DNA of 64,000 nucleotides from a virus: the IMG/VR virus record IMGVR_UViG_3300045988_131075, positions 29,671-93,670 of that record; one strand, written 5' to 3'. Positions 1,322-63,907 of this stretch are shown here, piece after piece; position 1 is the first letter of the stretch, and every line of letters begins with the position of its first letter. The translations under genes and the position numbers were made by a program. Below the pieces are notes generated by a model. The model saw only the letters and a list, made by a program, of their open reading frames with translations. It was not told where the DNA came from and searched no databases.

Positions 1322-2320
1322 ATGAAATTTGGTGTTCGCGAAATTTGCGATGTCGTTTTAAAGGCTAAGGCAACTCAGAAGGTTGGTAATAAAATCTTTT
1401 ATAGAAATGAGCCAGTTATTTATTTCGACACTTTAAAAACTTCCAGCATGGAAGGCGCTGCTACCACTGTATATGCACAGGGAGGACGCGGTAATGCTCG
1501 TTTAGTAGCCTGGGAAGGTGAGCGTACTGTTACCTTTACAATGGAAGATGCTCTTATTTCTCCAGAAGGTTTCATGATTCTTTCTGGTGCTGGTCTTGTT
1601 GAAGCAAGTGCTACTAGTACTATTAAACAGCACGTTACTGAAACTGTAGATAAATCACAAATTGATAGTACAACTACTGAAGGACAAGTTACTATTCGTG
1701 TTTCTAAAAAGCCCTATCTTCCAACAGACGAACAAGAGAATTTTGCTTATGTTATGTTTGTCAAAGATGGCGAAATTATCACTGAGCCTTTTATTCCTGT
1801 CCATGAGGAGTTAACTGCTAAGAAAGATACTAACGGTAATGAATATTTTGAATTAACTCTTAAAACTCCACATGATGATTATATTGCTGGTACAGGTAAT
1901 TATACTTTTAATGAAAAGAATGGCCTTCCAGCGGCTGCAGCATATGATAGTGCTATTGTTGATTATTATACTGAAAAGGCTAGGGGCGCTCAACAGATTG
2001 AGATTACTGCTGATAAATTCGGTGGTAACTATTATCTTGAAGCCTCTACTTTATTCCGTGATCAAAATGGTGTTGATATGCCTGCTGAATTTATTATTCC
2101 TAACTGCAAGATTCAGTCTAACTTCACTTTCACAATGGCTTCTTCTGGTGATCCTTCTACTTTCACCTTTACTATGGATGCTTTCCCTGATTATACTCGT
2201 TTTGACCACAGTAAGAAAGTTCTTGCCGCAATTCAAATTATTGAGGAAGGCGGAGCTAGTGACCTTCATCGTACTATGACTGCTCACGATGAGGCTCACA
2301 ATGCTTCTTTCACTGACTGA
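1322..2320 (+). CDS. Major structural protein, 332 aa: major tail (tube) protein candidate, with major capsid protein as the alternative. It has no TAG and a higher-GC codon usage, so it is likely highly expressed.
   Basis: RBS AAGGAGG sits 8 nt upstream of the ATG. The ORF is uninterrupted and followed by a strong terminator. It lies upstream of the chaperone-like gene and the tape measure gene. The beta-rich composition and C-terminal Ig-like tail are an impression only. Confidence 0.5.
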   Translation: MKFGVREICDVVLKAKATQKVGNKIFYRNEPVIYFDTLKTSSMEGAATTVYAQGGRGNARLVAWEGERTVTFTMEDALISPEGFMILSGAGLVEASATSTIKQHVTETVDKSQIDSTTTEGQVTIRVSKKPYLPTDEQENFAYVMFVKDGEIITEPFIPVHEELTAKKDTNGNEYFELTLKTPHDDYIAGTGNYTFNEKNGLPAAAAYDSAIVDYYTEKARGAQQIEITADKFGGNYYLEASTLFRDQNGVDMPAEFIIPNCKIQSNFTFTMASSGDPSTFTFTMDAFPDYTRFDHSKKVLAAIQIIEEGGASDLHRTMTAHDEAHNASFTD

Positions 2321-2493
2321 TGATTATTAAAGGTAAACGTTGGAACATCCAAAAGAAAACTGAGGAAGTAAAAAACAACAATACCAAGAAAGAGAAAAAA
2401 GCTGTTAAATCTATCAAGGTTCCTGAAGAACCTGTGATTTCTGAAGAAGAAATTGATGAGGTCAGCAAATTCTTTAATTTAGATAAAGAATAA
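2320..2493 (+). CDS. Small Lys/Glu-rich protein, 57 aa.
   Basis: The ATG overlaps the TGA of the upstream gene (tgATGa). It ends at TAA immediately before the terminator. Confidence 0.35.
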   Translation: MIIKGKRWNIQKKTEEVKNNNTKKEKKAVKSIKVPEEPVISEEEIDEVSKFFNLDKE

Positions 2494-2499
2494 TTTTAT

Positions 2500-2534
2500 G
2501 GGAGAGAATAGAAATATTCTCTCCCATTTTTTTT
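2500..2534 (+). terminator. Rho-independent terminator.
   Basis: The gggagagaata / tattctctccc stem is followed by a T9 run. Confidence 0.6.
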
Positions 2535-2558
2535 ATTTAGAGAAAAAGGAGAGATAAT

Positions 2559-3665
2559 ATGAATTCGTTATAGAGAAGTATTAAGGCCAGTCCAAGAGAA
2601 ATGAATACAGAAGATTTTTTAAAGAAATCTTATGAATTTACAAAAAGAAGTATGAGTTAGAAATTAAGAGCAAGAGATACTTCTGAAAAACAAGCTAAAA
2701 AATTAGAAGAATTCTTTCAAAGTATTCAAAATAGATAGCTTGGAAATCCTATCGAAAATATCCAAATGAGTGAATTATTAGATGCTTTAGAATAGATTAA
2801 TCCTTAGCTCTTTAATTCAATGAAATATTTATTTACTACGCCAGATAACTATGGAGATTCTAATGATGCGCATGGTAAATATTTTGAAGGGGTTATTGCG
2901 GAAGCGGTTGCCACTGCGGAGAATTATTTTGCTGGTAATAAAACTATGACTATAAGTGGAAGTAGTAAAAAGGCTGGAACCGCATCTGTTAACCTTATAG
3001 ATTTAGCAAAGGATTTAGATGAAGATACAAAAAATCTAATGAATGATATTTATTAGAAAACTGCCCAAGAAATGAAAAAAGATAGTGAAGCTGCATCTTC
3101 TACAATAAAAGGAGTTTCTGGCAAAGCGGATATTATAGGAATTTAGTAGAATTATACAATATAGAAAACTAGCCATTTAGAATTAGATGAAGAAATTTAT
3201 GATGCTTTATTAAATGCTACTTTTACTGCGAAAAATTATATGTCTAACACTTAGATTGAATTAGGATCTACTAATCCTTTTCGTGTTTTTATGACTATGA
3301 TTCCTCTTGGAGGAGCTACAAGTAAAATTTAGAGATATTACCGTATGTTGGCTTGTAAATAGAAGCACTTTCCTGATAAGCATCCTGATGCACCAAAGTA
3401 TTTTTATAGATTAAGAGCTATTTATGAATTAACTGGTGGAAAATCTAATTATACTAATACTGTATTAAATAAGCTAATAGGTGGAAATTATACTAAATTT
3501 TTAGTTTTAAATTTATAGGGACATATAAGAGTTATTCCTACTTAGAGTGTCATAAAAGAGCTTATTGACAATATTGATGATGATTAGTTTAATAAAGATA
3601 TAGATTGGCAAAAGGCTTTATATGGACGTATTAGGATTAATCAAAATAAATTTAGTGAAATTTAA
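2559..3665 (+). CDS. Hypothetical tail-module protein, 368 aa, with about 17 in-frame TAG codons.
   Basis: A single frame runs from ATG 2559 to TAA 3663-3665. All internal stops are TAG. Confidence 0.5.
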
Positions 3666-3723
3666 AATTGACTAAATAGAAAATTTTTTGTATAATGTAA
3701 TAAAGAGTAAAAGGAGGCTAATT

Positions 3724-4257
3724 ATGGCTAAAATTTCATATACTAAATTAGGAATTGGTAAGGAAGAATTGAATAAAGTTCAGACTGTAGAATATAATGA
3801 TCAAACCATTGAAGTAAAGCAATATCTTCCAGTTGCAGAAAAGAGTGAATTAATTACTCGTGTATTAAATAATTCTGTAGATGAAGATAATGGATATTAT
3901 AATCTTTTAAAGATGGATATGCATCTTGCACTTGAGATTGTTTATGCTTATAGCAATATTAATTTTACAGAAAAGCAAAAAGAGGATTCAGCGAAGCTTT
4001 ATGATATGCTCAATGCTTCAAAGGTGCTTAATCTTATTATTGGTCTTATTCCAGAAGGAGAATTTTATTATTTAAATAAGACTGTCCATGAAATGGCTAA
4101 TAATATTGTGGCTTATCGCAATTCCGCGATGGGAATTATGGAGCGCATTACTACTGATTATAGTAACTTAAATTTTGATGCTAGCACGATTCAAAAAGAA
4201 CTTGCCGATCCTAATAATATGACTTTATTGAAAGATATTCTCACTAAATTGGGCTAA
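3724..4257 (+). CDS. Putative tail assembly chaperone-like protein, 177 aa.
   Basis: RBS AAAGGAGG sits 6 nt upstream of the ATG. It lies immediately upstream of the tape measure gene. The protein is acidic and helical. Confidence 0.3.
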   Translation: MAKISYTKLGIGKEELNKVQTVEYNDQTIEVKQYLPVAEKSELITRVLNNSVDEDNGYYNLLKMDMHLALEIVYAYSNINFTEKQKEDSAKLYDMLNASKVLNLIIGLIPEGEFYYLNKTVHEMANNIVAYRNSAMGIMERITTDYSNLNFDASTIQKELADPNNMTLLKDILTKLG

Positions 4258-4302
4258 TTAAATTATTTAATTTAATTAATTTTTTAAAGTCATTAGAGTA
4301 AT

Positions 4303-4345
4303 GGGGATAAGAGTATTTTATTACTCTTATCCCCTTTTTATTTTT
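4303..4345 (+). terminator. Rho-independent terminator.
   Basis: The ggggataagagta / tactcttatcccc stem is followed by a T-run. Confidence 0.55.
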
Positions 4346-4387
4346 ATTTTGCAAAGTAAAAATTAAGAGAGAAAGGAGATTTTTTTG

Positions 4388-7300
4388 ATGGCTAAACAAT
4401 TAAATAGTTATCAAGTTAATTTACAATTTAATGCAAATACTGCATAGGCGAAAACGCAATTGCAAGATTTGCAAACAACTCTTGATGCTATTATAAAAGA
4501 GTCTGTAGCGGGGGTTTCTAAAGGAGACTTTAATTTAACTAAAAGATTAAATGAAGCGCAGATAGCGGCATCAAAACTACAAACCATTTTAGCTCAAACT
4601 ACTAATGTAAAAACGGGAAAAATGGATTTAACAAGATTTTCTCAATCTTTAAAATAGAGTAATTTAGATTTAAAAAAGATATAGAATAGTTTACTTGAAC
4701 TTGGACCTTCTGGGCAAAAAGCTTTTATGTCTTTAGCTCAATCTATTGTTGAAGCTGATGTTCCATTAAAAAGAACAAATTTATTAGTTTCTGAATTATG
4801 GACAACTTTAAAGAATACAGCTCGTTGGTAGATTTCTTCTAGTGCATTGCATGCATTTATGGGTACTATTCAATCTGCTTATGGATATGCCAAAGATTTA
4901 AATGAATCTTTAAATGATATTCGTATTGTTACTGGACACAATATTGAATATATGGATAAATTTGCTGAAAGAGCAAATAAAGCGGCGAAAGCATTAAACG
5001 CTACTACATTAGATTACACTAATGCTTCTTTAATTTACTATCAATAGGGTTTAAGTGATGAAGAAGTAGAAAAAAGAACAGATATTACTGTTAAAATGGC
5101 TAATGTAATTAAACAAAATGCTGATATTGTTTCTGATCAATTGACTGCAATTTGGAATAATTTCTATGATGGCTCCGATTCTCTAGAACATTATGCTGAT
5201 GCGATGGTGCGCTTAGGTGCAGATACCGCATCTAGCTCTGATGAAATTGCTGGCGGTCTTGAAAAATTTGCGGCAGTTGCTAATACAATTGGTTTAAGCT
5301 TTGATAATGCAGCAGCTGCGTTGGCCACTATTACTGCTACGACTCGTCAAAGTGAAGATGTAGTAGGTACTTCTTTAAAGACTATTTTTGCTCGTATTCA
5401 AGGTTTAAAATTAGGTGAAACCTTAGAAGATGGCACTACTTTAAATCAATATTCACAAGCTCTTGCGGCTGTTGGAGTTAATATTAAAGACTCTAATGGA
5501 CAATTAAAAGATATGGATATCATTCTTGATGAATTGGGCCACAAATGGTCAACAATTAGTAAAGACCAATAGGTAGCTTTAGCTCAACAAGTAGCTGGTA
5601 TTCGCCAATATAACCAATTAATTGCTTTAATGGATAATTTTGATTTTTATCAAGAAAATATTCAAAGAGCAAAAGATGCAGATGGTTCTTTACAAGAACA
5701 AGCTGATATTTATGCTGAAAGCTGGGAAGCTGCTCGTGATCGTGTGCGTGCAGCAGCCGAAAGCATTTATGATGATTTGATTAATGATAAATTCTTTATT
5801 AGTTTGTCTGATGCGATAGCAGGAGCTTTAGATGCTATCGATAAATTGATTAGTTCTATAGGAGGTCTTCCGGGAGTAATTGCAGCTCTTGGAATGATAT
5901 TTACTAAAGTGTTTAAAGTTCAAATGGGCGAGGGCGTTAATAATTTAGTTTTTGGCCTTTAGTCTTTAGTTGGACTTACAAAAAAGAGTGCAGTTTCTCT
6001 TAAACAAGAAGCTTATAATCGAGCTTCTAATATGGCTTTTGATACTGGTACTGAAGTTGGAGATAGATAGGGAGAATCATTAAAATAGACTTTAGACTTA
6101 AAGAAAAGAATATATGATATATCTGAAAATATTACAAAAGAGGAAAGACAATAGCTTGAAGGGTTAATTGAAATTAATCGAGCTTATAATGAACAGGCTA
6201 TAAAAGCGGCTCAAAAAAAAGATTAGGCTAGTGAGAATCTTCAAAATACTCGCATGGATCTTAGAGCGCGCATAAGAAGAAATTCTGCCACTGGAAAAGT
6301 AGAGAAAAATTTAAATACTTTTGGAAATGTTCAATAGCAAATGGGTGGAATTATTAAAACTGGTTTGCGAGGAACTAAAGCTTTAGATGGACTTAATAAA
6401 GCATTAAAAGAAGGAAGTCCATTAGGAAAAGCTTTTGAGGGCAGAATAAATACAATTCAGCAGGCTTTAATTAAAGTAGATAGATCTGAAGCAGCTAAAT
6501 CTATTGGAAATTTTGTTGAAGAATTAAAAAACGGAACTATAACAGTAGATTAGTTCTTGAAAAAAGTAAATAATGTTGTCACTAAAGAAAATTTAATGGC
6601 TGATGCTACATCCAAAGCGGCAACTATTCTTGAGGATGACTTTGGCAAAAAAGTTAAAATTAACGGCGAGGAATGTCAAAAGCTTGCTGAAGATATGACT
6701 GAAGTTATTGTAACAACAGATAAATTAAAAACTACTAATAAGCAAGTTGCTGGGTCTTATGAAAAAATAAAAGCTGCAATTGAAAATTATAAAAATGCTA
6801 CTGGAGATTTAGGGTAGAAATTAATTTCTATGGTTAATGGTTTTTCTTCATTGGCTATGGGATTGGCTTCCATTAAGAGTATTTTTGATACTTTATCTGA
6901 TGAAGATATGTCATTCTTTGATAAACTTTTATCAGTTAGTATGTCTTTAGGCATGGGTATTTCTATGACCGTTTCTGGCTTATCTACTATGGCTAAAGCC
7001 TATAAAGAATTGGCAGAAGCTAAAACTTTAGATAATATAAAGACTTCGATTAATACTGCTATTACAGAGATTAATAATCTGGTAAAAGCTTAGGCGGCCG
7101 CCAGAACAGGAACTCAAACAGTAGCTACAGATAGATAGGCATTGGCTGAAAGCAAACTTACAAAAAATATAATATTGTAGAATGCTGCCTATTTAGTCCG
7201 TAATACACAGATGTCTGCAACAGCAGCTTTTGGATTAAGTTTAGCTGGTACTATATTAGCTGTAGTTGCAGCTGCAGCGGCTTTAGTGCTTATATCTAAA

Positions 7301-10300
7301 GCAGTTTATAATTCTATTCATAAAGAAGAAATAGCGGCTGAAGCAGCAGCCAAAGCGGCTTCAGATCTTGGTAATGCTTATGATGAGTGTCGTGAAAAGT
7401 ATCAGCAAATGATTGATGAGTTTAATGAATACAAAGATGCCATAGATGCTTTGGATAATTTAACTAAAGGAACTCAAGAATATCGTGATGCTTTAGACGA
7501 GGCTAATCAAAAGGCTTTAGAATTAATTCAAAATAATCCTGATAAATTTAATAAAGATGATTATTATTGGGATGATAATAAATTAGTTATTAAAGATACA
7601 GCTATGTCTCGTGTAGCTGAAGCTAGTAGACAAGAGACAGCGGATTTATAGGCTGCTTCTGCTATGGCCAATGCCAATAATGCTCAGGCATAGGCAAATT
7701 TGCAGAAAGAAAATCTTACTGATATTGTTAAGAGTTCTTTGCGTAACACAGGTAATGTAAATAAATCTATTGATGCTTATTTAAATAGCGATAGAGTTGC
7801 TGTTGATAAAGAAGACTTAAAAGATATTCTTAATCTTGATAATGGTATAGACGATAAGGCTTTAGTTAATGTCCTTTGGCGCAATATTGATGCTTTAAAT
7901 GAGTTAAGAAATACTATGGATGGGGTTGAAACCTCTTTTGATCTTGCTAGTAAAACCGCAGCAAGAGCGCAATGGTCTGGTTCTGGTAAAGAAAATACTA
8001 AAGCTGGAAAAATGGCGCTTGAAGGTGGCGGAAGATTATATAATAATCTTTATGCTGAGGGAGAAAATACTGTTAAAGGTTATTCATTAGACACTAATTG
8101 GGCTGCCTATGAAAAAATGAATAATTTGAATTCTCTAAAAGGATATAAACGTTCTATTAAAAGCGATAAAGTTGAATACAGTTATTATGATGAGAATGGT
8201 GAAAAGATAACTTAGGAAATCAGTAAAGAAGCTATTCAAATCGCGGCCGCAACCCAATATGCTAATGATAGAATTGGAGAAGCTTTAGATAGCTTATATC
8301 AAAATATTGCTAAAGCTAATAAAGATGGCCTTGATAGTGTAGGGAAATATTTATCAACAGAAAATTTTGATAATATGACAAAAGGCGAGCTTGAACAATT
8401 TTAGGGATTAACTGATGATTAGTTAAAAGAATACGGAATTGATAAACAAGCTATTGAAGAAGCTAAGAAAGTTGTATTTGATGAAATGGATGGTCTTAAT
8501 GAAGCTATGAGCGATTAGATCACTGTTGGAGTGAATAAGACTTTAAAAGAAAATATTTAGAATTTTGGTTCTGAAGGTAAAGATGCCTATATTAGTGCTA
8601 TCAATCAAATTGGTGAATCTATTGATTGGAATGCTTTGTCTCCAGAATCTTAGGCTGAAGCTTGGAATAAAATTTCTAATATTAATTGGTTTGATTTTGA
8701 TGCTCAACGTCAAGCTGAAACTCTAATTAAAGAAATGGGCGGAGATGTTTCTGTTCTTGGAGATAATTGGGATAAAGCTTTTAGCTAGATGCGCAAAGCT
8801 GGAGATGTCGTTCCAGTATTAACTGATATCAAAGAACGCCTTGATAAAATAGATAATATTACTAAAGATATGAAAATCGGTAAGATTTTAGAAAAAGAAG
8901 ATTATGATACTTTAGTAAATTATAATAGTGAATTGGCAAGATATTTTGCTATTTTATCTGATGGGTCTGCTGTTTTTGTAGGTGATCCTCTTGATTTCCA
9001 GTAGATGGTTAAATCCACTAAGTAGGATGAATTAAGTAGAACTATAAATGGATACCAAAATATTATTGATTAGTATTATGCGGGGGCTGAAGAACTTAAA
9101 AAAGCGGGTGGATTAGATTAGATTCGAGAAGTTGGGTCTGAAAATGTTAATAATCAGTTAGCGTTTTTAAAGACTTAGAACTATGATGAAACATAGATTT
9201 CTGATTGGATTGGTAAGCTTGCTAATTCTAGAGGATAGGATATTGACACTTTAAAAGCTATTGCTGAAGCAGTTAATGAAGTTGGTAATTCTTTCTTATC
9301 TAGCAAAGATAGTATAGAACAATATACAGCAAGTAGTCAATAGGCTATGAATGAATTGGCAATGACCGCCGAAACTGCTCAAGAAGCAGAAGAAATGCTT
9401 AAAAATGGTAGTATCAATGAAATAGCTTATAATATAAGTGCTATATAGCGTATGTCTAGTGAAAAATGGGAAAATTTAGATTCATCTGAAGTAAATAAAT
9501 ATGCAGATTCTTTAATGAAGACAGCTAAAAGTTCTAAATTATTAAGTGATGAACTTGTAAATAATAAAGAGGCTGCTGAAGATGTAGCTCTTTACACTAT
9601 GAAAATGAATAATGGTGTAGAGAAATTGAAAAATGGCTTTAGCGGATGGGCTGATGTATTAACGAAATCTGATTCTGCTTCACAAGAATATTATGATGCA
9701 ATGGTTGATATTAAAGATGCCATGTCTGATGTGCTTGGGGTTTCAGAAGAATTTTTAACTGATGAGTTTATTACTAAAAATTTAACTGATATAGGCAAGG
9801 CTGCAGAAGGCGATGCTGATGCTATAGATCGTTTGGCCGCTGCGGCAAGTAAAGATATTCTTTTAAATGTTGATTTTGTTTAGGATAATAAACAATTACA
9901 AGATGTTTTATTATCAATGCATGATAAATTAGCGGCGGAAATTCCAGATATAAAAATTGGTACAACTTTTGAAGGTCAAGATGATTTAGTTAGATAGGCT
10001 CAAAACATTATCGGCACAGCAAAAATGACTGCTGAATAGGCAAATGCTTATTTTAGTGCCATGGGTTTTGAAACTAAATTTAAAGTTGAACCTCAAAAGA
10101 TGGAATAGGAAACCCCGATAGTACGTTCTAGATAGACAATAGTTGGAGCAGGATTTGATGAACACGGAGCTCCCTATTGGGAAACAACAACAGAAACTTG
10201 GAATGATGGATATAGCATTCAAACAGGTTATGTCGATGCTATTGCTATGGCGACCTCTCCTGATGGAACAAAAACTCCGATTATTGAAAGTATGACTAGT

Positions 10301-13300
10301 AAGCCTACTGGAATTATGAATAATAGTTCAAAAGCTAATAGAGGTACTACAAGCTCAAGTAAAGGCGGAGGAGGAAATAAAAATAAACCAACCAAGGGAG
10401 ATTTAACTAAAAAAAGCGATGTTGTTGATCGTTATAAAGAAATTACTGATAGCATCAATGATACCACTCGTGCTTTAGATAAGGCTAATAAATCGGCAGA
10501 TAGACTTTGGGGTAAAGCCCATCTTGATGCGATGGCTAAAAGTAATAAATTAACTTTAAAAGAAATTGATTTATTAAAACAAAAGCAAAAAGAGGCTTAG
10601 GCTTATCTAAAGACAGATAAAGTTACTTTATAGCAAGCTGCGAAAGAAGCTGGAATTACTTTCACATTTGATGAAGATGGTGACATTTCTAATTATACTG
10701 ATTAGATGACTAAACTTTATAATTAGCTCATAGCTGCTTAGAATAAAGCAAATTCTTTTTCTACAAAAGATGCTCAAGACGCTTATAAAGAAGCAACTTT
10801 AGATCCGATTCAAGAGAAAATCAATAAGTTGAAAGATGCTATTAAGCAATATGAAGATACAAGAGATTTAGTCGAAGAATTAACTGATGATATCCAAGAT
10901 AAAATAAACGAATGGCAAGATAAAAATTATCAAATGCTTACTTATGAAGTTGAAATAAAGGTTCAATTAGATGAAAATGATACTAAAAAATTAGAATATT
11001 ATTTTGATAAATTAAGTGATAATATTTATAAAGCCGCTGAAGCTCTTGGATATTTACAAGGCCAATTTGATCCAGTAATTAGTCAATTAGGAACTTACGA
11101 AAATTTCTATGGCCAGTTAAATAATGCTTATTCTAATGGAGAAATCTCTCAAGAAAATTATATTGAAGGCTTACAAGATGTATATGATAATACATTAGAT
11201 AATTTAAATGCTTTGTAGGATTTAGATAAAGAAATGCTTGAATATTATGGTAATACTATAGATTTGGCAAATGATGAATTGTCTAAATATACAGACCATA
11301 TGGAACATTTAACCAATGTATTAGACCATTATCGTTCTATTATTACTTTATTAGGCAAAGATAAAGATTATGATAAAGTTTTATCAGTTTTAAATGGAAC
11401 TGCTTAGACTAAGAAAAATAATTTTGATACTTCTAAGCAATGGTATGAAAGCTTGAAACGTGAACGCGATGCGGCGGCCGCAGCTTTAGCCAGTTCAACT
11501 GATGAGGCTGAACGTGAAGTGCTTCAAAAGAATTATGATGCTATATTAGCCGCATTCGATGAAGCGGAAGAGGATATGCTTTCTAAAGCTGAAGAATATG
11601 GCGAAGCATTAAAAGAAATTCTTACTACAAAGATGGAGCAAGCTGCGGATGAAATGAATAAGCAATTAAGCACTACTAAAGTAAGTATTAATGGTAATAA
11701 CTTTAATATTTCTGGTTGGGATGCTTTAAATGATGCTTTGGATAGAATGTCTTCTTATCAAGATGAATATTTAACAAAAACTAATTAGATTTATGAAATG
11801 AATAAACTACTTAATAATGTTAATTAGGCTATTGATAAGACAAATAATCAAGCAGCTAAAAATAGATACCAGCAATTTACTAAAGAAATTGAGTAGTTAA
11901 GAGATAAAGATAAATTAAGTCAATTAGAATTAGAAATTGCTTAGGCTAAATATAAAGTACTTGAAGCGCAAATTGCGTTAGAAGAAGCTCAAAACGCAAA
12001 GTCTACAGTTAGACTGCAACGTGATAATGAGGGCAATTTTGGTTATGTGTATACCGCAGACCAAGAGAAAGTAAATGATGCGCAATAGGCTTTGGCGGAC
12101 GCGGAAAATGATTTATATAACATTCGCCTTGATGCGACAAATAAATATGGTCAACAAAAACTTCAATATGAGAAAGAGTTGGCTGACAAACTTGCGGAAC
12201 TCGATTAGAAAGCTGCGGAAGATGCCGTTTACCGCGAGACCGCTTATCAGCAAGAACGCGCTTTAGTAATTCAACAATATACTGATTTAATTACTACTGC
12301 TGGAAATCTTTATGCAAAAGCTCAAGAAGAGGATAGTAGAGTTGTTCAAGACGCTTGGGTAAATTCTTTTGATATTATCAAAGATAATAGTAATAGTTGG
12401 AAAGATACTATTACTGAAAACACTAATATTATCAATGATACATTTAAAGAATGGCAAGATAGCATGGATGAAATTAGTAAAATTGTTGGTGATGATTTAA
12501 AAGATACTCAATAGAAAGTTAAAGATGTTACTGATGAAAGTAATAAACTTTATCAAGAAGTATCTAATAGAGTTATTCCTACTCTTGAAAGCGAGTTAAG
12601 TTCTGTCCGTAGCGCTACTGAAGCTTGGGCACAACATCGTCAGCAATTACTTGATACTATTAGAGCTTATGAAGAGCTTTTGAACGCTATTCAAGCGACA
12701 TTGCGCGCTTAGAGTGGATTTGGTAGCGATAGTAGTAATTCTTCAACAAGAGTTGATTGGTCTGAAAAAATGGGTCAAGTTGAATATGGTTCTGATAAAT
12801 ATAATGAATATTATCAAAATCGTGAAGATGTTATTAAAGGAGGATATGACATTAAAACAGCTACAAATGCTCGTGTTAATGCTTTTTATCAAAAAGGATT
12901 GACATTACCAATTACCCGCAATGGAAAAACTTATACTCATTTTACTGATATTCCTGATAGCATTTGGAAACAATTAGTTGGGTTTAGAAGTGGCGGTTAT
13001 ACTGGCACTTGGAATGATGGTGGAAAATTAGCGTTCTTACATTAGAAAGAATTAGTTCTTAATGCTGATGACACGGAAAATATGTTAGCTTCTATCCAAT
13101 TAGTTAGATAGATCGCGAAACAATTAGATTTCAATAGTCAACAAATTTCTACTCTTTCTTCTTCTGGATTTACTGTTAGTTCTCAAGATGGAACATTAGA
13201 ATAGAATGTTAGAATTGAAGCTAATTTCCCGAACGCAACTGATAGATACGAAATTCAAGAAGCATTTAATACATTAGTTAATGTAGCTTCTCAGTATGCC

Positions 13301-13312
13301 AATAGAAAATAA
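4388..13312 (+). CDS. Tape measure protein, about 2974 aa. This is a single ORF once TAG is read as sense, with many tens of in-frame TAG codons.
   Basis: RBS GAAAGGAG precedes the ATG at 4388. All 15 long track ORFs from 4460 to 12770 share one frame, and the gaps between them contain only TAG. The stop is TAA at 13310-13312. The protein is Ala/Gln-rich and helical, with no enzymatic motif recognised. Confidence 0.7.
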
Positions 13313-13317
13313 AATTA

Positions 13318-13355
13318 AGGGTGAAGTCTTATAGGCTTCACCCTTTTTCTTTTTG
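13318..13355 (+). terminator. Rho-independent terminator.
   Basis: The agggtgaag / cttcaccct stem is followed by a T-rich tract. Confidence 0.55.
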
Positions 13356-13427
13356 GGTAATTATATTGAATAAAACTAATTAATTTTTTAGAAAATTATA
13401 GAGTAATGAGTAAAAGGAGGGATTATT

Positions 13428-16400
13428 TTGGCTGATAATGCACTAAATATTCAAGAAAGTTTATGTCAAGCAATGAGTATCATTGCTAATTCGAGTGTTG
13501 ATAAAGTTAAATTTGATAGCACAATTGAATGTACTATTATTGATGCGACTGATAAACTTATTGGTAAGTATAAGGTTAAAAATGAATCTTATGCGGAATT
13601 TTATGCTTATTCCCAAATAACCACTTATAATAAAGGTGATAAAGTGTATGTATAGATTCCAAAAGGAGATTATAATAGCACTAAATTTATTGTCGGTAAA
13701 AAGACAGATAAAAATGAAGATAAACCATATAATTTTGTCAATCCTTTTAATACTTTTATTGATTTAACTGGTAATTTTTTTATTGCCAAAGATAATAATA
13801 AAGAAGTTTGGAGTATCTTAGCTAATGGCAATGAAGAGGAAATTGAAATTACTCCAAATGGCGGAATTACCTTTACTGATGAGCAATAGGGATTTACGCG
13901 GTTGGGGTTGCGTGCCGATTTCCGCGCCTGGCTTGAAATGCTCGGTGTAGTAAGTGGTAATTATGGATTAAAATTAAATATATATGGTATTAAAGATGAT
14001 ACTGCGGACAATATTAAAAAAATAGAAAATAGTATTAAAAATAATGGAGAAATCCCTTTAATTGCATCTATTGATTTAGATACTAATGATATGTATGGCA
14101 ATCCTTATAATTTTGAAGGATATTATTCTCAAGAAATTGTTATTGATACTAGCGCAGTAGCTAAAATATATAATATAAAAATATTTTTATATCAAAAAGG
14201 TAATTTTAAAGATAGTAATAATAATTTAATTAGTTATGCTAATGATTTCAATATGTCAATTCCGCCCAATAATATCTTTGTAAAAGATATATACATGGGG
14301 TTAGGCATTTCCGCAGATGAAATAGAAAATGAATATGTAAGATTATATTCATTAGATGGAAGTACTTATGTAATTGACGATAAAGGTTAGATTGATTCTA
14401 AAACTATTAGATTGAAATGGGTTCATTTTGATGAAGACGGCAATAGAACTCAAATAACCGAACATAAAAAAGATGATACTTTTGAAGTTCATTGGTATAA
14501 ATATGAATTTGGAGCACCGTCCGCGGATGAATATTCTGGTGTCTATTGGACTGCAATTGAAGATAATAAAAATAATTTTTATTATTAGCTAAAACCGCGC
14601 TCTAATAAAAATCAAGAATAGGTTAAAGTAATTATTTTATACAATGGAAAAGTTTATAGAAGTAATATAATTACTTTTAATAATGAAAAACAAGTTCCTA
14701 ATGATGCGACTATTGATAGTTTAAATGCTTTGTCTATTCACTGTGAAGATTAGACTAATGGTAATTATTTAATTTATAATTAGGCTAATTATTTGATGAA
14801 TAGATCAGATGGAAAAATTAGTCGTAAACTAACCTTACATTTTGATTCTAAAACTTATGCTATTAGCAATGGTATAATTGGTAAAAATTAGAATGGAGAA
14901 AGTAAATTAGTTGAAGCTTAGAGAGTAATTTGGCAGATTCCTATTAAGAATACTATGCTTAATTTTGGTATTAAAGATGATGGAACTGATGCTACTTACA
15001 AAGAAATCATTATTGATTTAACTAATGAAAACGTCAGTGTTTCTCCTGGAGAATTTTTTTTAAACTACACCATTAATACTTTTTATAGTAGCAATAAATC
15101 TAACAATACTGTAATTGCTAAAATAGAAAAGGATGGTATCGTTTATACTGCTATTAAAGATTTCACTTTTGGATAGGCAGGAACTAATGGTACTGATTGT
15201 ACTTTGGTAATTGATATGATAGCTCACGAGAATTTAAATAATAAAGTATTTACTGCTATAAGAAGTAGTGGTGACGTAAGAGATAATTATATTTTTAGAG
15301 CTTAGTTATATGATAATGAAGGTAAGGAAATTACTGATTTTAAAAATTGTAATTGGACTTGGAGTTTTATGCCTGGGTCAATTGTTGATAATATTGATTT
15401 ATAGAATACTAATAATTAGAATTGTGTGTTAAGAGTTAATATCACAAATTCTATAATGAATAATTTAATTATTTTATAGGTAAAATTATCTGGTTGGGGA
15501 GACTATGATTTAACTGCTTATTATCCAGTTCCTATTACGACTTTAGATAATGCTTATATAAATGGTCCAACAGAGGTAATTTATTTAAGTAATGGTGAAC
15601 CTACATTTTCTAAAGAACCTTATAAATTATTTATAGACGGAAAAATAGATGAAACTGTGACTTGGAGCATTTATTCTAGCAATTCTGATGATGCTTTTAT
15701 TGGTAAAGTTAATTATAATAAGGATAAAAAAGAATATAGATTAAGTCCTATGAGTTTTTACGTTGATGGTGTAAGCGTTTATGGAGTCCAAGGAAAATAG
15801 AGAAATAAGATAGTTTGGACGTAGCCTATTTTAGTATTATAGAATAAATATCCATCTGCTATGGTAAATAAATGGGATGGAAAATTTTATACTGATGTAG
15901 AAAATAATTTTTTAGGTGTAGCTTAGATCGCTGCAGGTAAAAAAGATAAAAATGCTAATACTTTTACCGGAGTATTAATTGGTGATTTTGGAACAAAACA
16001 AAATGCAGATTCAAGTATTTCTTATAATACTGGTGTTTATGGATATAATAATGGGTATCAAGTTTATGCTTTAAAAGATGACGGAACTGCTACTTTTGGT
16101 AAATCTAGCACAGGATAGATTATAATTAATGGAACTTCAAGTATTATAGAATCTAAAGATTTTGAATATACTTATAATGAGTCTGGAGCTAGTGTAATAA
16201 CAGGGTTAAGTTTAGATTTATTAAATGGTAAAATTTATGCTTAGTCTGGTACTTTTAGTGATAATATTAAAATTAATTATAATGGTTCTACGGGATAGCC
16301 TTGGTATATTTAGTATGGAGCGGGAGAAAAATCATTAAGTGATATATTAAATGCAATTGGTAGCGCTGCTGCTGAAGCTAAAAGTGCCGCTAGTGCGGCG

Positions 16401-16751
16401 GGGGCTGCTGCTACTAAAGCTCAATAGGCAGCAGATGCAGCCGCGGATGTAGCGGAAACAGCTGCTTCAATTTCTATAGTAGCTAACAATGCTGCGTCTA
16501 ATGCATAGAGTGCGGTAGATGATTTAAGTTATTTATCAAAAATTTTGAATTATAAAAATAGTAGTAATATTTATTTAGGTCCTTCTGTTGAATATTCTTC
16601 TACTCCCAATTTAACTATTTTTAATGGCACAATTGGCTTAATGGGAGGAACTGGTAATTATCTTAATGTGACTGATAGGTCTATCTATTTACAAGGTCCC
16701 GTTGTAATAAATGGTTCATTGACTCTCAATGGAAAAGAAATAACAGGTTAA
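13428..16751 (+). CDS. Tail or baseplate structural protein, about 1107 aa, with about 28 TAG codons.
   Basis: TTG start after RBS AAAGGAGGG. The frame is continuous through all track fragments (13428, 13902, 14955, 16545) and ends at TAA. Confidence 0.5.
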
Positions 16752-16773
16752 ATTAAAAAGGAGAAAAAGGAAA

Positions 16774-16950: not shown

Positions 16951-16951
16951 A

Positions 16952-22115: not shown

Positions 22116-22128
22116 GGAGGACCACTAA

Positions 22129-22473: not shown

Positions 22474-22475
22474 TA

Positions 22476-24749: not shown

Positions 24750-24756
24750 TTTAAAT

Positions 24757-24790: not shown

Positions 24791-24837
24791 GTATTGATTA
24801 AAAAGATTTTATAAATAATAGAAAGGAGTTGATTATC

Positions 24838-58052: not shown

Positions 58053-58339
58053 AAACCGCTCTCTCCCATCTTATGCCCTAATGGACAAATATGAAAAAGA
58101 ACAGGAATTTCCATTTCCGTATATCCTTTTTCTAAATCTCCATTATACCTAATTACTTTTCGAGTTTCAATTCCACTTGAGATACAATTACTGGTTTTAT
58201 CATAATATTTATTACATTTATCGCAATAAATACAACTTCGGAGCAAACTATCTCTTTGTTTTTTTAATCCTTCAATTTGCGCGCTCAGTGAAATAATTGT
58301 ATCATTTACAGAGATAGGAATATCATAATCATCATTCAT
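58049..58339 (-). CDS. Hypothetical Zn-ribbon protein, 96 aa.
   Basis: It has CxxC...CxxxH motifs. Confidence 0.35.
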   Translation of the reverse strand: MNDDYDIPISVNDTIISLSAQIEGLKKQRDSLLRSCIYCDKCNKYYDKTSNCISSGIETRKVIRYNGDLEKGYTEMEIPVLFHICPLGHKMGESGL

Positions 58340-59439
58340 ATAAATATCCTTTCCTTATATAATTGTAAAAATTTTTCTTTACCATCATCAATTGGTGAAT
58401 CTTTGTATTTTGTAATCATATTTTTATCAAAAATAAAAGATATAAGCACATCATTTTTAAATTTAGTTCTAATCTTTAAAAGATTTAACTTTAAGTGTTG
58501 AAATTCTGCGTCTCCAATTTCTTGGAATTGTCTATCAAAAGCAATTATAATTTCTTGCGCGCCACTATCTAATAATAATTGAATTTGATGCGAAGAAACA
58601 TTACTTCCGCAACAAGCTACTGATATATTGTTATTCCAACCGAAATCAGTAGCATATTTCAATACTGATTTTTCACTTTCAAAAATGATTGCTTTTTTCA
58701 TTATGCCAATGGCATTTTTAGACCAATTTAATCCATATAAGTTCATTCCAAGAGGATGATTATATAATTGATTATTTATTTTCATTGGTCTATATTTCCC
58801 ATATAGCTCCGCCTCGTCTTTGCACATAGTGCGTCCACGCAAGCCTACAAATCTTCCACTAATATCATAATGAGGAATTGTAATTTGATCGGCTCCTGGA
58901 TAAAAACCAATACGCGCTTTATTAATTACTTCTTGAGAAATTCCCTCATCAAGCCAAGGAACTATTTTAATATTATAATTTAATCTATTTAAAATAGAAT
59001 CATCATAATCTTTTAAAATAATTTTGTTATTTTTTAATTCAATCTCTTGGATACGAGAATAATTTGATAAAATTTTCCAATCATCTAAAGTTTTACCCAT
59101 ATCGTCATCTTTTATCATACCTGATAAACCAAAGCGACGAGCAACCCATAAAACTGAATCATTTAAATCAAATTCTTCATCATATTGAATTTTCATTACT
59201 TTAGAACATAATTCAAAAATATCAAAAGTTGAATCACATCCTGTGTAGCATTTAAACAATCCTGTATTTTCATAAAAATAAAGTTTTCTACTACCTTCTC
59301 CAGGAGGATTATGACAAATGGTGGAAGAGAGAATCCCGAATTCTGTATATTCAGGATCTCCGCCCCATTCAATTAATAAATCATAAATATTTTCAAGCCC
59401 AAGAGCTTGACGAATTTCTGATTTATCAAATACTATCAT
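58336..59439 (-). CDS. dnaG: DNA primase of the DnaG type.
   Basis: It has the zinc-binding segment ICHNPPGEGSRKLYFYENTGLFKCYTGC and a TOPRIM region. No TAG. Confidence 0.6.
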   Translation of the reverse strand: MIVFDKSEIRQALGLENIYDLLIEWGGDPEYTEFGILSSTICHNPPGEGSRKLYFYENTGLFKCYTGCDSTFDIFELCSKVMKIQYDEEFDLNDSVLWVARRFGLSGMIKDDDMGKTLDDWKILSNYSRIQEIELKNNKIILKDYDDSILNRLNYNIKIVPWLDEGISQEVINKARIGFYPGADQITIPHYDISGRFVGLRGRTMCKDEAELYGKYRPMKINNQLYNHPLGMNLYGLNWSKNAIGIMKKAIIFESEKSVLKYATDFGWNNNISVACCGSNVSSHQIQLLLDSGAQEIIIAFDRQFQEIGDAEFQHLKLNLLKIRTKFKNDVLISFIFDKNMITKYKDSPIDDGKEKFLQLYKERIFI

Positions 59440-59625: not shown

Positions 59626-61158
59626 TTAAAAAGCTGACTCTTCTTCAAGAGTAATTTTTATATCATCAATAGGAACAAGTTCATAAGCATATGTAGTACA
59701 AAACATAGGAATAATTCTACAAGTTCCTAAATCTGCTTTACACCATAAAATAACTCCTTTATACCTACCACGTCTATTTTTATAAACAGACATTTTAATA
59801 GTTGGAGTATCAAATAATTTTGTGTTTAGTATTTTTTCTAATGAAATTAAGTCATCATCTTGAACATTTAAAAGAATTGATCCATAATCTACTTTATCTG
59901 CGATAGATTTTGCTCCACGCAAAAGATTCTGGTCAGGAGTTTTAGAATCAACATAATCACCATTTAACTGTGTTGCTGACATAATAAAAACACCATATTG
60001 ATTACAGATATCTTTTAATTTGTTAGATAGCATAAAAAGTATGTTATCTTCACGAAGTTTTACTCCACCACTACGACGAGTAATTTCTTCAAGAATTTTC
60101 ATGCTTGTATGAATATAGTCGTGAAATATATATTTTACATCGTGGTCTCGGATGCCTTTTTTGATTTCATTTTCAACATCCTGCAATGAAAAATCAGGTA
60201 ATTCACGAATATACAATGGACTATCTTTAAGAATTTTCGCAGCTTCTATTACTCGTTCTTTTTCATTTCCTTGATATTCATTATAAATAATATGTTCTTC
60301 ATTCACATTAGAAAGAAAAGCAAGCATCATTGTTTGAATTTCATTTTTATCTTGCTCTGTAGTTATATACAATACTGGTTCTTGGATTCCATTTTTAATC
60401 CAACTTCCAAAAGTATCATCATATATTTTATTACAAGCAATATAGCACGAATCCGCAATCATAGAACGAGTTTTACCTACTCCTGTGGCCGCGGAACGCA
60501 AATAAAACTTTTTAAGTCTTGCACCACGAGTAACTGTATTAATTAATGGCCCATATAGAGGACTTCCTGCTATTGGATGTTGCTCTAAGTCATCAAGCAA
60601 TTCAAAAATTCCATCACCTGCTTGAACCGCAACTCCTTCAACGTCATTTACATACTCATATTTAATTTGTTCTATGCGGTCATCAATTAATTGTGCGATA
60701 TGCTCTAATGAAGAATTATCAAGATTATCTTCTTGTAATTGTTTTTTTTCAGTATCTAAAATATTATCAGGATCATAAATAAAAGAAACATCAATGCCAT
60801 ATCTGTCATAAGCACGAAGTAGAGACATTTTTTTTAAACGACCATAATAATAATCAAATGACAAAGGTTTCGCATTTTCAGAAACTTTTAATAACCATTC
60901 TTCGCCTTTATTAACTTTAAATGTGGCTTCATATTTAGGTCGAGAAGAAAGAAAATCACTAATATTTTCTAAAGTAATTTTCTAAGCTCCTAATTCATGA
61001 ATTTTATATATTGCTCCAAAAACAATTCTATGAAATTCATCAGCAAAGTCTTCATCAGTTATTGTATATCTATCAGTAAAATCCAAAAGCTAAGGAGTAT
61101 TATATACGCACCCTATAACTTGTGTAATCGCTGTTGGGTCTACATATTTACTCGGCAT
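59626..61158 (-). CDS. dnaB: DnaB-like replicative helicase, about 510 aa, with 2 TAG codons.
   Basis: RBS GGAGG. It has a DnaB N-terminal domain and a RecA-like C-terminal domain with AATGVGKT. Confidence 0.6.
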
Positions 61159-61773: not shown

Positions 61774-61801
61774 ACCGGAGCGACTTTTATCACTCCGGTT
61801 A
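61774..61801 (-). terminator. Intrinsic terminator after the Sak4 gene.
   Basis: The AACCGGAG / CTCCGGTT stem is followed by UGACUUUUAUUU. Confidence 0.5.
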
Positions 61802-61816
61802 TAAATTATATTTTAT

Positions 61817-62812
61817 TTACTTACTTTCCATTTGAGGAAGAAGATCATCTTTAATTTCACCAACAATTAAAGATACAAATTCTGCCTGTTCAGGAGTGGC
61901 GTCAGAAATTTTCTTGCCTTTACCCAAATATTTATCAATAATTTGAGTGATACGAGGACCAAAGAATCCAGGATTCTTATTCATCATATCTCCAGCAAGA
62001 TTTTGGAATTCAGCCATAAGTGCTTCATAATCATAAGTAGGAGCTTCAGGGGCAACGACCATCTTTTCATCAGTGACAAATTTACCACCATTGTCAGCTG
62101 CTTCCTTATCAATAGCCTCATGGATAGCATTAATAAGACTATCATAATTCATAGGAATTTCACTCTCGATATACTTAAAACGACCACCACAGTCAATAAG
62201 GTCATTACCAGAACGAAGAGTTAGGACAGACATTTGACCTGCCGCCTTTTGATGAGCATATCCATAAACATCAGCCATACCAGTGATAATAGTGCGAGTG
62301 GATTGAGAAAGATTTGGTCTTACTGCCATAACCTCAGTACCATCAGGGCGAGTCACAGTTTGTTCTTTTTCATGTCCGATAAAGAAAACAGCATATCCAA
62401 GACGAGTTAAACCTCTAAAGACTTCATTAAATTCATCTTTAAACTTAGACCAGCCCTTACCATAACCAAGGTCTCCAAGAGATTCAATCTGATTTTGATT
62501 ACAGATATATTTCTCACAATATTTAGCGGCTTCATCAATAGTATCTACAATAATAGCATTATACATTGCCTTTACTTCTGGACGCTTCAAATCACGATAA
62601 ACTTGCTTCATTTCTGCCCAAGAAGTAATGTCCGCGGCCATAACACCAGGAAGGCAGTTATAGCCTTGCTCAAAAGCTAAAAGCAAAGAATTCGGCATTT
62701 GAGTCGCCAAAGTAGTCTTGCCTGTCTTGGGCTTGCCATAAATAAAAGTAATATAACCAGAAAGATCTTTACTTACCTTATGAGGTTGAATTTTAGTTAA
62801 ATCAATAGCCAT
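61817..62812 (-). CDS. Sak4-like (AAA_24) recombination ATPase, 331 aa, with no TAG and higher-GC codon usage.
   Basis: It has a GKPKTGKTT P-loop. Confidence 0.55.
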   Translation of the reverse strand: MAIDLTKIQPHKVSKDLSGYITFIYGKPKTGKTTLATQMPNSLLLAFEQGYNCLPGVMAADITSWAEMKQVYRDLKRPEVKAMYNAIIVDTIDEAAKYCEKYICNQNQIESLGDLGYGKGWSKFKDEFNEVFRGLTRLGYAVFFIGHEKEQTVTRPDGTEVMAVRPNLSQSTRTIITGMADVYGYAHQKAAGQMSVLTLRSGNDLIDCGGRFKYIESEIPMNYDSLINAIHEAIDKEAADNGGKFVTDEKMVVAPEAPTYDYEALMAEFQNLAGDMMNKNPGFFGPRITQIIDKYLGKGKKISDATPEQAEFVSLIVGEIKDDLLPQMESK

Positions 62813-62959
62813 TATGTTATTTCTCCTTATTTGTTTTAATTATTATCTCTTTAAGTATTTCTTCTAAATTTAGTATATTACAAAAATCATCATATAAATT
62901 AACTTTAGCGCGATGACCTCTTATTGGGAGGTCATCGCTATTTAATGGCTAATTCATGA

Positions 62960-63907
62960 TTAGAATTTAAAACCTTCTGTAGCAGTGGATGCAACAGTAG
63001 TAGCAGTAGTGGCATTCTGCTTAGAAGCTTTATATTCATCTTGGCGCTGCTTCAAAGTAGCAAGATAAGTCTCACGTGCGGCCATAGCTTCAGTAAGTTC
63101 TTTCGCAGTGATAGAACTTTCATCATCCCAAACATAAGGCTCCTTAGCGCCACCGGTAATAACAAAATCCTTACGAGTGCTCTGAACTTCACGAACATTA
63201 TCGTCGCCAAATGCAGACTCTTCACGAATCTCACGCTTAATTACTTCAGATACCTGACGACCCCAAAGCTTTGTGAATACAGGCTCAGAAGGAGAAGCTC
63301 CAAGACCCTCATAATAAGCCATGGCTCCAGGATTAGTAGCTGTAAACTCAACAGGAAGTAAAGACTTGCGGAAATCAAAAATTGCTCCCTTAACAATTAC
63401 CTTTTCAGGAATATTATGCTCTTCATCAGCATCAACATGAGTTACATTAGTGATAATCATATCACACTTAAAAGTATTGCGCTGCTTTTCATCATCAATA
63501 AGAGTGGTAGTAGTATGAACAAATCCGCCCTCATTGCGCTTAGCGCTTACAAGCTCTTCCTTGCCGTTACGATCAGAATAAAATTCATTAAGACCAATCG
63601 CGGAATCGACACGAAGCTTAGCAGCTTTATCTTCTCCATCAGCCATATAATTACCAATTGTACCATCAATAATATTCTGAAGAATACTATATGTAGCATT
63701 AGGAGTGCCCTTAGTAGTAGTTTGAGTTACATAAGTAAAGTGAACCTGGACGATATTAGTAAGAGCATTATCAGTAGCAATACTAATAGTACCAGAAATA
63801 AAAGGAGTGCCGGGGTTCTTAGAATTTGGTCCGGTTACCTTATTTTCCAAAGCATGTTCGTACAAGATACCTTCAATATGAGTAGCATTTTCCATTACTT
63901 TCTTCAT
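62960..63907 (-). CDS. Putative ssDNA-binding or recombination-associated protein, 315 aa, with no TAG.
   Basis: It has a gene-2.5-like C-terminal aromatic tail, is adjacent to Sak4, and shares the same atypical codon usage. Homology was not recognised with certainty. Confidence 0.3.
   Translation of the reverse strand: MKKVMENATHIEGILYEHALENKVTGPNSKNPGTPFISGTISIATDNALTNIVQVHFTYVTQTTTKGTPNATYSILQNIIDGTIGNYMADGEDKAAKLRVDSAIGLNEFYSDRNGKEELVSAKRNEGGFVHTTTTLIDDEKQRNTFKCDMIITNVTHVDADEEHNIPEKVIVKGAIFDFRKSLLPVEFTATNPGAMAYYEGLGASPSEPVFTKLWGRQVSEVIKREIREESAFGDDNVREVQSTRKDFVITGGAKEPYVWDDESSITAKELTEAMAARETYLATLKQRQDEYKASKQNATTATTVASTATEGFKF

Follow-up and report, generated by a model that had tools for sequence, protein, structure and literature searches.

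In recoded phages, the reassigned stop codon is used unevenly: structural and lysis genes are enriched in it and replication genes are variable (10.1101/2021.08.26.457843; PMC7886860; 10.1101/356790). The incorporation of glutamine at TAG in protein has been addressed by proteomics (Peters et al. 2022, PMC9523058). For phAss-1, a published table lists the genes for the major capsid protein, the tail homologue, DnaE, the primase, a single-strand binding protein ('SSB') and a RecA-like protein without TAG, and those for the tape measure protein, portal, TerL, RecJ and holin with TAG (PMC10607447). A 2026 preprint described a TAG-free capsid gene in one recoded crAss-like phage and proposed a pressure for efficient capsid translation (10.64898/2026.08.21.746148). 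Here we analysed TAG use in a 64,000-nt stretch (hereafter the window) of the IMG/VR virus record IMGVR_UViG_3300045988_131075, positions 29,671 to 93,670, in which an initial annotation, made from the sequence alone, had noticed TAG-free genes among TAG-bearing ones. We found that TAG use follows two correlates, the genome arm and codon adaptation, which account for most of its variation. We think it probable that TAG is a poor synonymous glutamine codon at mutation-selection balance, avoided by arm and by expression level.

The window is part of the genome of a ~196-kb siphovirus-like phage, predicted to infect gut Firmicutes. By protein comparison, the described phages closest to it are phAss-1 (OQ749652, "Caudoviricetes code 15 clade") and, among Enterococcus phages, EF1/VRE9. 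A megablast search with 24 kb against GenBank phages gave no nucleotide-level match. A crAss-like identity was our first guess and was dropped once the tail-protein search was made. There are 313 tail-protein relatives in IMG/VR, on contigs of up to ~200 kb. One of these, IMGVR_UViG_3300045988_110853 (196,076 bp), is almost the same genome (tail protein 100%, DnaE 97% and g55 97% identical). GC skew, which is positive up to ~39 kb, and the orientation of the open reading frames (ORFs) split the window into a plus-strand part from 1 to ~39.1 kb and a minus-strand part from ~39.1 to 64 kb. With TAG as sense, 55 ORFs were called on the coding strands, among which three short ones (g24, g33 and g54) are doubtful. 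Their stop codons were TAA in 42 cases and TGA in 13.

1..39079, plus strand: late arm (tail, host-recognition, holin); 22 ORFs, 12,742 codons
39123..63907, minus strand: replication and nucleotide-metabolism arm, SPbeta yor-operon-like; 33 ORFs, 7,758 codons

The large genes are fragmented in the standard code. Stop-to-stop ORF cover (at least 100 amino acids) rose from 44,028 nt in the standard code to 69,474 nt with TAG readthrough, with ORFs of up to 2,982 codons. TAG is present in 37 of the 55 ORFs, and domains of the tape measure protein, DnaB, RecJ and the helicase were found on either side of TAG codons. Opposite the TAGs of the window, standard-code orthologues had glutamine at 662 of 1140 aligned residues (58%), 13-fold more than the background of 4.4%. 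Judged from these alignments, the window uses genetic code 15, with TAG predicted to be read as glutamine.

All five genes that the initial annotation had named as TAG-free are without in-frame TAG and open in the standard code:

1322..2320, plus strand: g03, homologue of the major tail (tube) protein; 332 codons, 0 TAG, GC 0.385, codon adaptation among the top three
47437..51414, minus strand: g37, DnaE (Pol III alpha); 1325 codons, 50 glutamine codons, 0 TAG
58336..59439, minus strand: g49, primase (phrog_47); 0 TAG
61817..62812, minus strand: g53, Sak4-like (AAA_24) annealing protein (phrog_124); 0 TAG, GC 0.375, high codon adaptation
62960..63907, minus strand: g55, YorF-like (phrog_2367); 315 codons, 0 TAG, GC 0.396, highest codon adaptation in the window

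The first of them had been called the major structural protein. It is structural, though not the capsid: g03 matches phrog_2729, and tblastn found matches in Bacillus phages annotated as tail tube or major tail protein.

In total, the window has 226 TAG in 20,500 codons, and TAG makes up 27% of its glutamine codons. The late arm has 188 TAG (1.48 per 100 codons; 35% of glutamine codons) and the early, replication arm has 38 (0.49 per 100 codons; 13% of glutamine codons). The difference is significant (odds ratio 3.0, p = 6e-12). TAG density was also heterogeneous between genes (G = 190, 54 degrees of freedom, Monte-Carlo p < 2e-4), and within-arm heterogeneity was significant too (G = 58.6 and 82.9, Monte-Carlo p < 2e-4). 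Out of frame, the TAG densities of the arms differed only 1.25- to 1.6-fold, and DnaE had 46 TAG trinucleotides out of frame and none in frame. Therefore, the TAG depletion is specific to the reading frame.

TAG use had been described as sharply bimodal. The heterogeneity behind this description is strong, but we did not find bimodality: the densities (genes of at least 100 codons) form a continuum from 0 to 4.09 TAG per 100 codons, and each arm has as many TAG-free genes as expected from a binomial (3 versus 2.3 in the late arm, 15 versus 14.3 in the early arm). Similarly, the 1 to 4 TAG per 100 codons ascribed to neighbouring genes were seen around g03 (g01 2.3, g02 3.8, g05 4.1, g07 2.0) but not in the replication arm, where neighbours have 0 to 1.2. 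With the TAG rate of the respective arm, a count of zero had a probability of 4e-4 for DnaE, 0.006 for g03, 0.15 for the primase, 0.18 for Sak4 and 0.20 for g55. TAG occurs in 18 of the 33 ORFs in the replication arm, among them those of DnaB, RecJ, both NrdD parts, NrdG and the superfamily 1 (SF1) helicase. The TAG-free ORFs of the late arm are g03, g04 and g06.

Along the genes, TAG codons were evenly spread, with no enrichment near gene starts. In orthologues at 80-100% protein identity, 57% of TAGs were retained; comparatively, AGA, ATA and AAG were retained in 76-81% of cases. Thus, TAG retention is no higher than that of other synonymous choices, and the turnover of TAG sites is at least equally rapid. 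As to an origin of TAG from CAG, the orthologues had no excess of CAG at TAG sites (29% versus 39% at CAA sites), a comparison confounded by gene-level bias. The base after in-frame TAG (window genes of at least 100 codons) was A in 47% and T in 14% of cases, against 32% and 27% after CAA/CAG (p = 1e-4). In 24 other lineages this effect was weak (37% versus 35% for A; present in only 12 of 23 lineages), and we make no claim for it.

The three genes with the highest GC in the window are g03, g53 and g55 (0.294 +/- 0.027 in the other genes), as the initial annotation had noticed for 1322-2320 and 61817-63907. Their GC excess is +0.11 to +0.12 at codon position 1, +0.05 to +0.09 at position 2 and +0.07 to +0.09 at position 3. 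About two-thirds of it lies at positions 1 and 2 and so mostly reflects amino-acid composition. Compared with the other genes, these three prefer AAG (61% versus 17%), CTT (64% versus 22%), CGT (62% versus 28%), GGT (55% versus 37%), ACT (82% versus 63%) and CAG (41% versus 9%), and they use less ATA (0% versus 21%), AGA (9% versus 49%) and TTA (21% versus 61%). Among the four codons first reported as typical of them, AAG and CTT were thus strongly enriched and GGC marginally so (23% versus 13%, p = 0.03), but ACC was not (7% versus 9%); the enriched codon is ACT. As the preferred codons are largely T-ending (CGT, GGT, ACT, TCT, CTT), they bear the signature of translational selection, not that of a GC-directed shift or of a donor's composition.

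TAG use had also been said to track GC. We found no correlation between TAG density and GC at third codon positions across the window (rho = -0.13, p = 0.43). It was codon adaptation that TAG density tracked. A Spearman test against the fraction of preferred codons (Fop) gave -0.84 among 27 late genes, -0.82 without g03, and -0.53 for early genes. For a non-circular score, we derived the weights from a pair of capsid-region genes that lie beyond the window (L002 3995-6036), leaving out the glutamine codons. By this score, g55, g53 and g03 were ranks 1-3 of 41 window genes, and its correlation with TAG density was -0.78 in the late and -0.45 in the early arm. When the TAG share of glutamine codons was modelled as binomial, score and arm were independent factors (likelihood-ratio chi-square 49.8 and 57.5, p ~1e-12 to 1e-14). 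In the low-copy virion genes (tape measure, portal, connector, fibre), TAG makes up 30-68% of the glutamine codons.

We then compared lineages. We fetched 80 tail-gene loci, of which 47 were TAG-recoded and 33 standard-code. After clustering at 90% identity of the tail protein, with a single locus kept from each cluster, 25 recoded and 12 standard-code lineages remained. Among the recoded lineages, the tail protein was TAG-free in 20 of 25 (0.08 TAG per 100 codons), a 367-codon capsid-region gene upstream of the window in 22 of 24 (0.02 per 100) and the 304-codon neighbour of the latter in 20 of 23. The homologue of the 367-codon gene in phAss-1, ORF25, was annotated as the major capsid protein by its authors (PMC10607447). 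Comparatively, no lineage had a TAG-free portal gene (0/24; 1.43 per 100), g02 (0/25; 3.08 per 100) or connector-region gene u10 (0/25), and the g06 orthologues were TAG-free in only 8 of 21. The contrast in Fop was 0.61-0.65 versus 0.31-0.43 in recoded lineages and 0.56-0.59 versus 0.34-0.47 in the 12 standard-code lineages. This equal contrast in standard-code lineages implied that the codon bias is independent of recoding.

In the replication arm, g55 was TAG-free in 15 of the 17 lineages around it (Fop 0.64) and g53 in 9 of 12 (Fop 0.55). DnaE orthologues had 0-1 TAG in every lineage examined. The primase orthologues had 0-7, and their avoidance is not conserved. RecJ orthologues had 1.1 TAG per 100 codons, with 4-14 TAG in most recoded relatives examined, and the GIY-YIG homing endonucleases (2.06 per 100) were the TAG-richest genes of the replication arm in relatives. 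Relatives at 57-100% identity keep the order g55-g53-g52-g51-g49 and the place of the tail gene. However, the slot of Sak4 is unstable (L093/L096 and L123/L124/L138): g53 identity falls to 53% in loci where the flanking genes are 81-84% identical, and three loci have a reverse-strand gene of 350-384 codons in place of Sak4. High codon adaptation is kept in every Sak4 allele class.

If TAG is a poor glutamine codon, the suppressor tRNA would have to compete with release factor 1 at each TAG, and every TAG would cost yield and produce truncated protein. As this cost would scale with the number of copies needed, selection would clear TAG from abundant proteins and tolerate it elsewhere. One gradient would be the genome arm, in which virion genes use TAG ~3 times as often as replication genes. 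The other would be expression, the strongest codon-adapted genes of both arms (the tail protein, the capsid-region genes and the YorF-like/Sak4 pair) being almost TAG-free. The higher GC of g03, g53 and g55 would then be a by-product of amino-acid composition and codon adaptation, not of foreign origin. We infer high expression of the TAG-free, codon-adapted genes, and inefficient suppression as the selective cause. That highly expressed genes avoid suppression and use optimal codons, one of the explanations first offered, is the best reading for three genes (g03, Sak4 and YorF-like), which have the top three scores and are conserved in this respect across lineages.

The other features of the late arm are as follows:

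36-572, plus strand: g01, virion/head-tail joining gene; 4 TAG
572-1297, plus strand: g02, virion/head-tail joining gene; 9 TAG
2320..2493, plus strand: g04; 57 codons, 0 TAG, overlaps the stop codon of g03
2498..2527, plus strand: intrinsic-terminator-like hairpin immediately downstream of g03/g04; 13-bp stem, then a T run
2559..3665, plus strand: g05, TAG-richest gene of the window; 367 codons, 15 TAG, 68% of its glutamine codons
3688..4257, plus strand: g06; 189 codons, 0 TAG, not significant (P ~0.06-0.11)
4303-4334, plus strand: terminator-like hairpin after g06
4385..13312, plus strand: g07, tape measure protein by size and position; 2975 codons, 58 TAG, 1.95 per 100
13317-13345, plus strand: terminator-like hairpin after the tape measure gene
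38669..39079, plus strand: g22, holin (phrog_13712, E = 7e-38); 1 TAG among 12 glutamine codons (arm mean 35%)

Genes g01 and g02 match phrog_6123 and phrog_4051, and TAG makes up 64-67% of their glutamine codons. Only 24 nt separate g02 from g03, which thus lies within the late gene block. The terminator after g03/g04 is what would be expected for a gene whose transcript should outnumber the downstream ones; it is no ground for calling g03 an "early unit". Two adjacent fibre-like genes, g14 and g15 (24829-27095, plus strand), share the N-terminal motif V-K-F-x-x-G-S-x-x-x-F-E and have apparent TTG starts.

The replication arm encodes YorF-like, Sak4/AAA_24, DnaB-like helicase, primase, RecJ-like exonuclease, SF1 helicase (g40) and DnaE proteins. 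Its further products are guanylate kinase, NrdD, NrdG, dUTPase and a RuvC-like resolvase. Besides the TAG-free genes given above, the following features were found:

43722-46809, minus strand: split nrdD, with g35 as N part (45517-46809) and g32 as C part (43722-44702)
44834-45394, minus strand: g34, GIY-YIG homing endonuclease in the NrdD insertion; 2 TAG
55024-55863, minus strand: g45, lysozyme-domain gene; TAG in 0 of 11 glutamine codons
55917..57665, minus strand: g46, RecJ-like exonuclease; 6 TAG
59626..61158, minus strand: g51, DnaB-like helicase; 2 in-frame TAG
61773-61745, minus strand: sigma-70-like promoter, 11/12 match, after the next terminator
61800-61773, minus strand: terminator-like hairpin directly after Sak4

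With its two in-frame TAGs, g51 is an essential replication gene that needs suppression. The other TAG counts of this arm are 1+1 in NrdD, 1 in NrdG and 1 in the SF1 helicase. The lysis genes are TAG-poor here (holin g22 and the lysozyme-domain gene g45, the latter a candidate lysis gene). The terminator and promoter after Sak4 make g55-g53 a bounded unit. In a promoter scan, matches were barely above shuffled sequence in one region and not above it in the other, and the only signals used were the terminators and this one 11/12 promoter. Between g55 and Sak4, the 46-codon g54 (62813-62959, minus strand) is probably not a gene; its interval holds a hairpin with an 11-bp stem (62910-62938) and a strong AAGGAG ribosome-binding site for Sak4.

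Gene g55 is a homologue of SPbeta YorF, a hypothetical protein, and phrog_2367 is a PHROG family of unknown function. It had been labelled SSB-like. Searches of Pfam-A and PDB lent no support to this label (no Pfam-A match, no PDB sequence match and a profile match at chance level only), but the phAss-1 authors annotated its homologue as a single-strand binding protein (PMC10607447). Its place next to Sak4 and an aromatic tail at its end would make it a candidate SSB, which is suggestive only. PDB sequence and profile searches gave nothing useful for either g55 or the capsid homologue. The AlphaFold model of g55 (predicted local distance difference test, pLDDT, 42.7) and the structure model of the capsid homologue (pLDDT 38.7) were unusable, the alignments being shallow with sequences at least 74% and at least 87% identical, respectively.

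NrdD is uninterrupted in most relatives (744-766 aa). No group I intron or other Rfam intron model matched the NrdD insertion, and Rfam gave no match at gathering thresholds in the whole window. In other relatives, DnaE is interrupted by similar endonucleases (e.g. L275, L282, L287, L289 and L293).

How firmly does the pattern point to a costly codon cleared from abundant proteins? Several observations weigh against this reading. DnaE is TAG-free or nearly so throughout, yet has a mid-range Fop of 0.40, and RecJ, with a similar score, is TAG-rich. After score and arm are accounted for, a ~two-fold overdispersion is left (Pearson chi-square 101, 52 degrees of freedom), so that there are unexplained gene-specific effects. 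Codon adaptation is only a proxy for expression, and the score came from phage genes. If selection acted on suppression efficiency, A would be expected to be preferred after TAG; the window clearly shows this preference, but in relatives it is weak and inconsistent. As the lineages share ancestry, the lineage counts are not fully independent events. In addition, the upstream 367-codon gene is a putative capsid gene, named after the annotation of its homologue by the phAss-1 authors.

The model of Borges et al. takes TAG recoding as a translational timer, in which TAG-free genes are translated at infection and genes with TAG wait for the suppressor tRNA, which gates late or lytic functions. The threefold TAG density of the late arm fits this model, as do the TAG-rich homing endonucleases inside early genes, which it predicts, and DnaE, which has no TAG or a single one in all lineages despite ordinary codon adaptation. 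That the g55-g53 pair is its own terminator-bounded unit fits as well. As one TAG would be enough to gate a gene, the low density in the holin is not decisive. However, TAG in 18 of 33 replication-arm ORFs, among them DnaB, RecJ, NrdD, NrdG and the helicase, means that the TAG-free set is not a self-sufficient early programme, and the TAG-free tail, capsid and neighbour genes stand among TAG-rich late genes, g03 after a gap of 24 nt. Nor does a timer predict the continuous fall of TAG share with codon adaptation in the late arm (rho ~-0.8). TAGs do not cluster at gene starts, their turnover is that of ordinary synonymous sites, and both the holin and the lysozyme-domain gene are TAG-poor. We therefore consider the timer possible but unlikely as the general explanation: it explains the arm bias and perhaps DnaE, and its strict early/late form is not supported. 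A different adaptive account, which we regard as doubtful, is that the TAG number of each gene is a built-in yield dial, full-length output falling geometrically with TAG count if the readthrough probability is below 1. It may match virion stoichiometry, with 0 TAG in the tail-tube and capsid subunits, 4-15 in the 12-copy connector proteins and 58 in the 3- to 6-copy tape measure. If true, the dial would set virion stoichiometry among closely spaced late genes and would be an adaptive tuning device specific to recoded phages, not just relaxed selection.

Chance has to be considered too. At ~1 TAG per 100 codons, several 300-codon genes would be free of TAG with no selection at work. TAG-free genes are as many in each arm as the binomial predicts, the zero counts of the primase, Sak4 and g55 are individually unremarkable (P = 0.15-0.20), and the primase and g06 are not consistently TAG-free in relatives. 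As an account of the whole pattern, chance is nevertheless quite improbable: the heterogeneity is far beyond it within and between arms, DnaE and g03 have P = 4e-4 and 0.006, and g03, the capsid homologue, g55, g53 and DnaE avoid TAG again in the majority of the diverged lineages. The lineage comparison thus refutes chance for g03, g37, g53 and g55, and chance stands for the primase, g06 and most short TAG-free ORFs. It had also been proposed that 1322-2320 and 61817-63907 are modules recently acquired, here taken to be from a standard-code, higher-GC donor. Their genes do have the three highest GC values of the window, the Sak4 slot is unstable (53% identity versus 81-84% in its neighbours, and three loci with the reverse-strand gene), and whole arms are exchanged between relatives. 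Against this, position and gene order are conserved at 57-100% identity, elevated codon adaptation is common to the orthologues of all 25 recoded and 12 standard-code lineages and to every Sak4 allele class, the GC excess is greatest at codon position 1, and many of the preferred codons end in T. A foreign origin is thus extremely improbable, and recent acquisition of g03 and g55 was rejected.

The exchange of arms was seen in sample 3300045988. Contigs with a replication arm 98-100% identical to that of the window had a tail protein only 67-69% identical (loci L086, L087, L089, L090 and L133 versus L058, L062, L061, L068 and L066). This mismatch implied that whole arms were swapped between co-occurring relatives.

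Scans for tRNAs found none in the window and none in 32 flanking loci. The suppressor tRNA was found only with a pattern built from the phAss-1 tRNA. It is a predicted tRNA(CUA) of 90 nt on the nearly identical contig IMGVR_UViG_3300045988_110853 (L173 9078-9167, minus strand), ~70 kb from the region equivalent to the window. The anticodon stem-loop matches that of the phAss-1 suppressor tRNAs exactly, and the variable region contains an additional arm or insert. Like tRNA-Gln, this tRNA carries U1 and G73, and one of the phAss-1 suppressors is its homologue. It lies within a dispersed cluster of tRNAs for Tyr, Val, Pro, Ile, Arg-TCT, Leu-AAG and Ser, and several ORFs near this cluster are also headed by the N-terminal motif of g14/g15. 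An ARAGORN call of 'SeC(tca)' on the same contig (L173 7726-7805), which falls within an ORF of 675 codons, is probably spurious. Three tail-locus relatives (L073, L077 and L078) had a long-ORF cover of 0.70-0.76 in the standard code versus ~1.2 with TGA as sense, and they may be code-4 members of the same family.

The uneven use of TAG in these gut phages is not a clean early/late switch; TAG is avoided by degrees, in step with codon adaptation, which tempers the lysis-timer model for their family. For annotators, it means that TAG-free genes in a recoded genome need be neither foreign nor early. With thousands of homologues, contigs of ~196-200 kb, and recoded and standard-code lineages side by side, the family is a natural experiment on the cost of a reassigned stop.

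Compared with the code-15 crAss-like, Lak and 'gem' phages, the window phage is alike in reading TAG as glutamine, in the enrichment of the recoded codon in structural genes and its variable depletion in replication genes, and in its heavily recoded homing endonucleases. A counterpart of their tRNA(CUA) is predicted on the near-identical contig. In both, standard-code and recoded lineages are close relatives. Unlike in those phages, the lysis genes are not preferentially recoded here (TAG is 1 of the 12 glutamine codons of the holin). The major tail protein gene is TAG-free in the window phage, whereas the crAss tail tube gene was reported to be preferentially recoded (10.1101/2021.08.26.457843). 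The replication arm is not in the standard code, TAG being present in 18 of its 33 ORFs. The TAG-free tail tube gene, the TAG-poor lysis genes and the recoded replication arm are three departures from the timer picture. The dominant within-arm correlate found here is codon adaptation, which the crAss-like, Lak and 'gem' papers do not analyse.

A second comparison is with phAss-1 (proposed Phassvirus, PMC10607447), which belongs to a group of large gut siphoviruses that also includes Enterococcus phage EF1. The capsid (50% identity), tail (~50%), YorF-like (27%) and DnaE proteins are homologous, and the tape measure is ~3000 aa in both (3149 aa, and recoded, in phAss-1). The Sup-CUA tRNA of phAss-1 shares its anticodon stem-loop with the tRNA of the near-identical contig and likewise has an additional variable arm. 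The gene-by-gene pattern of TAG presence and absence is common to the two phages at 27-50% protein identity; the helicase differs, being TAG-free in phAss-1 and carrying 2 TAG in the window phage. The genome is ~196 kb versus 136 kb in phAss-1, and the gene order differs. The phAss-1 paper lists TAG presence and absence and draws no link to expression or codon bias. As in the crAss-like phage of the 2026 preprint, the genes for abundant virion proteins avoid the recoded codon here and have the strongest codon bias. This is also the pattern of translational selection known from phage structural genes with high expression. Beyond that preprint (10.64898/2026.08.21.746148), our analysis adds a gene-by-gene quantification, two replication-arm genes, 17-25 lineages, and standard-code relatives too. 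The core phenomenon is thus already published and our gain is incremental; what is new is its quantification and its demonstration at the level of lineages in a different and very abundant family.

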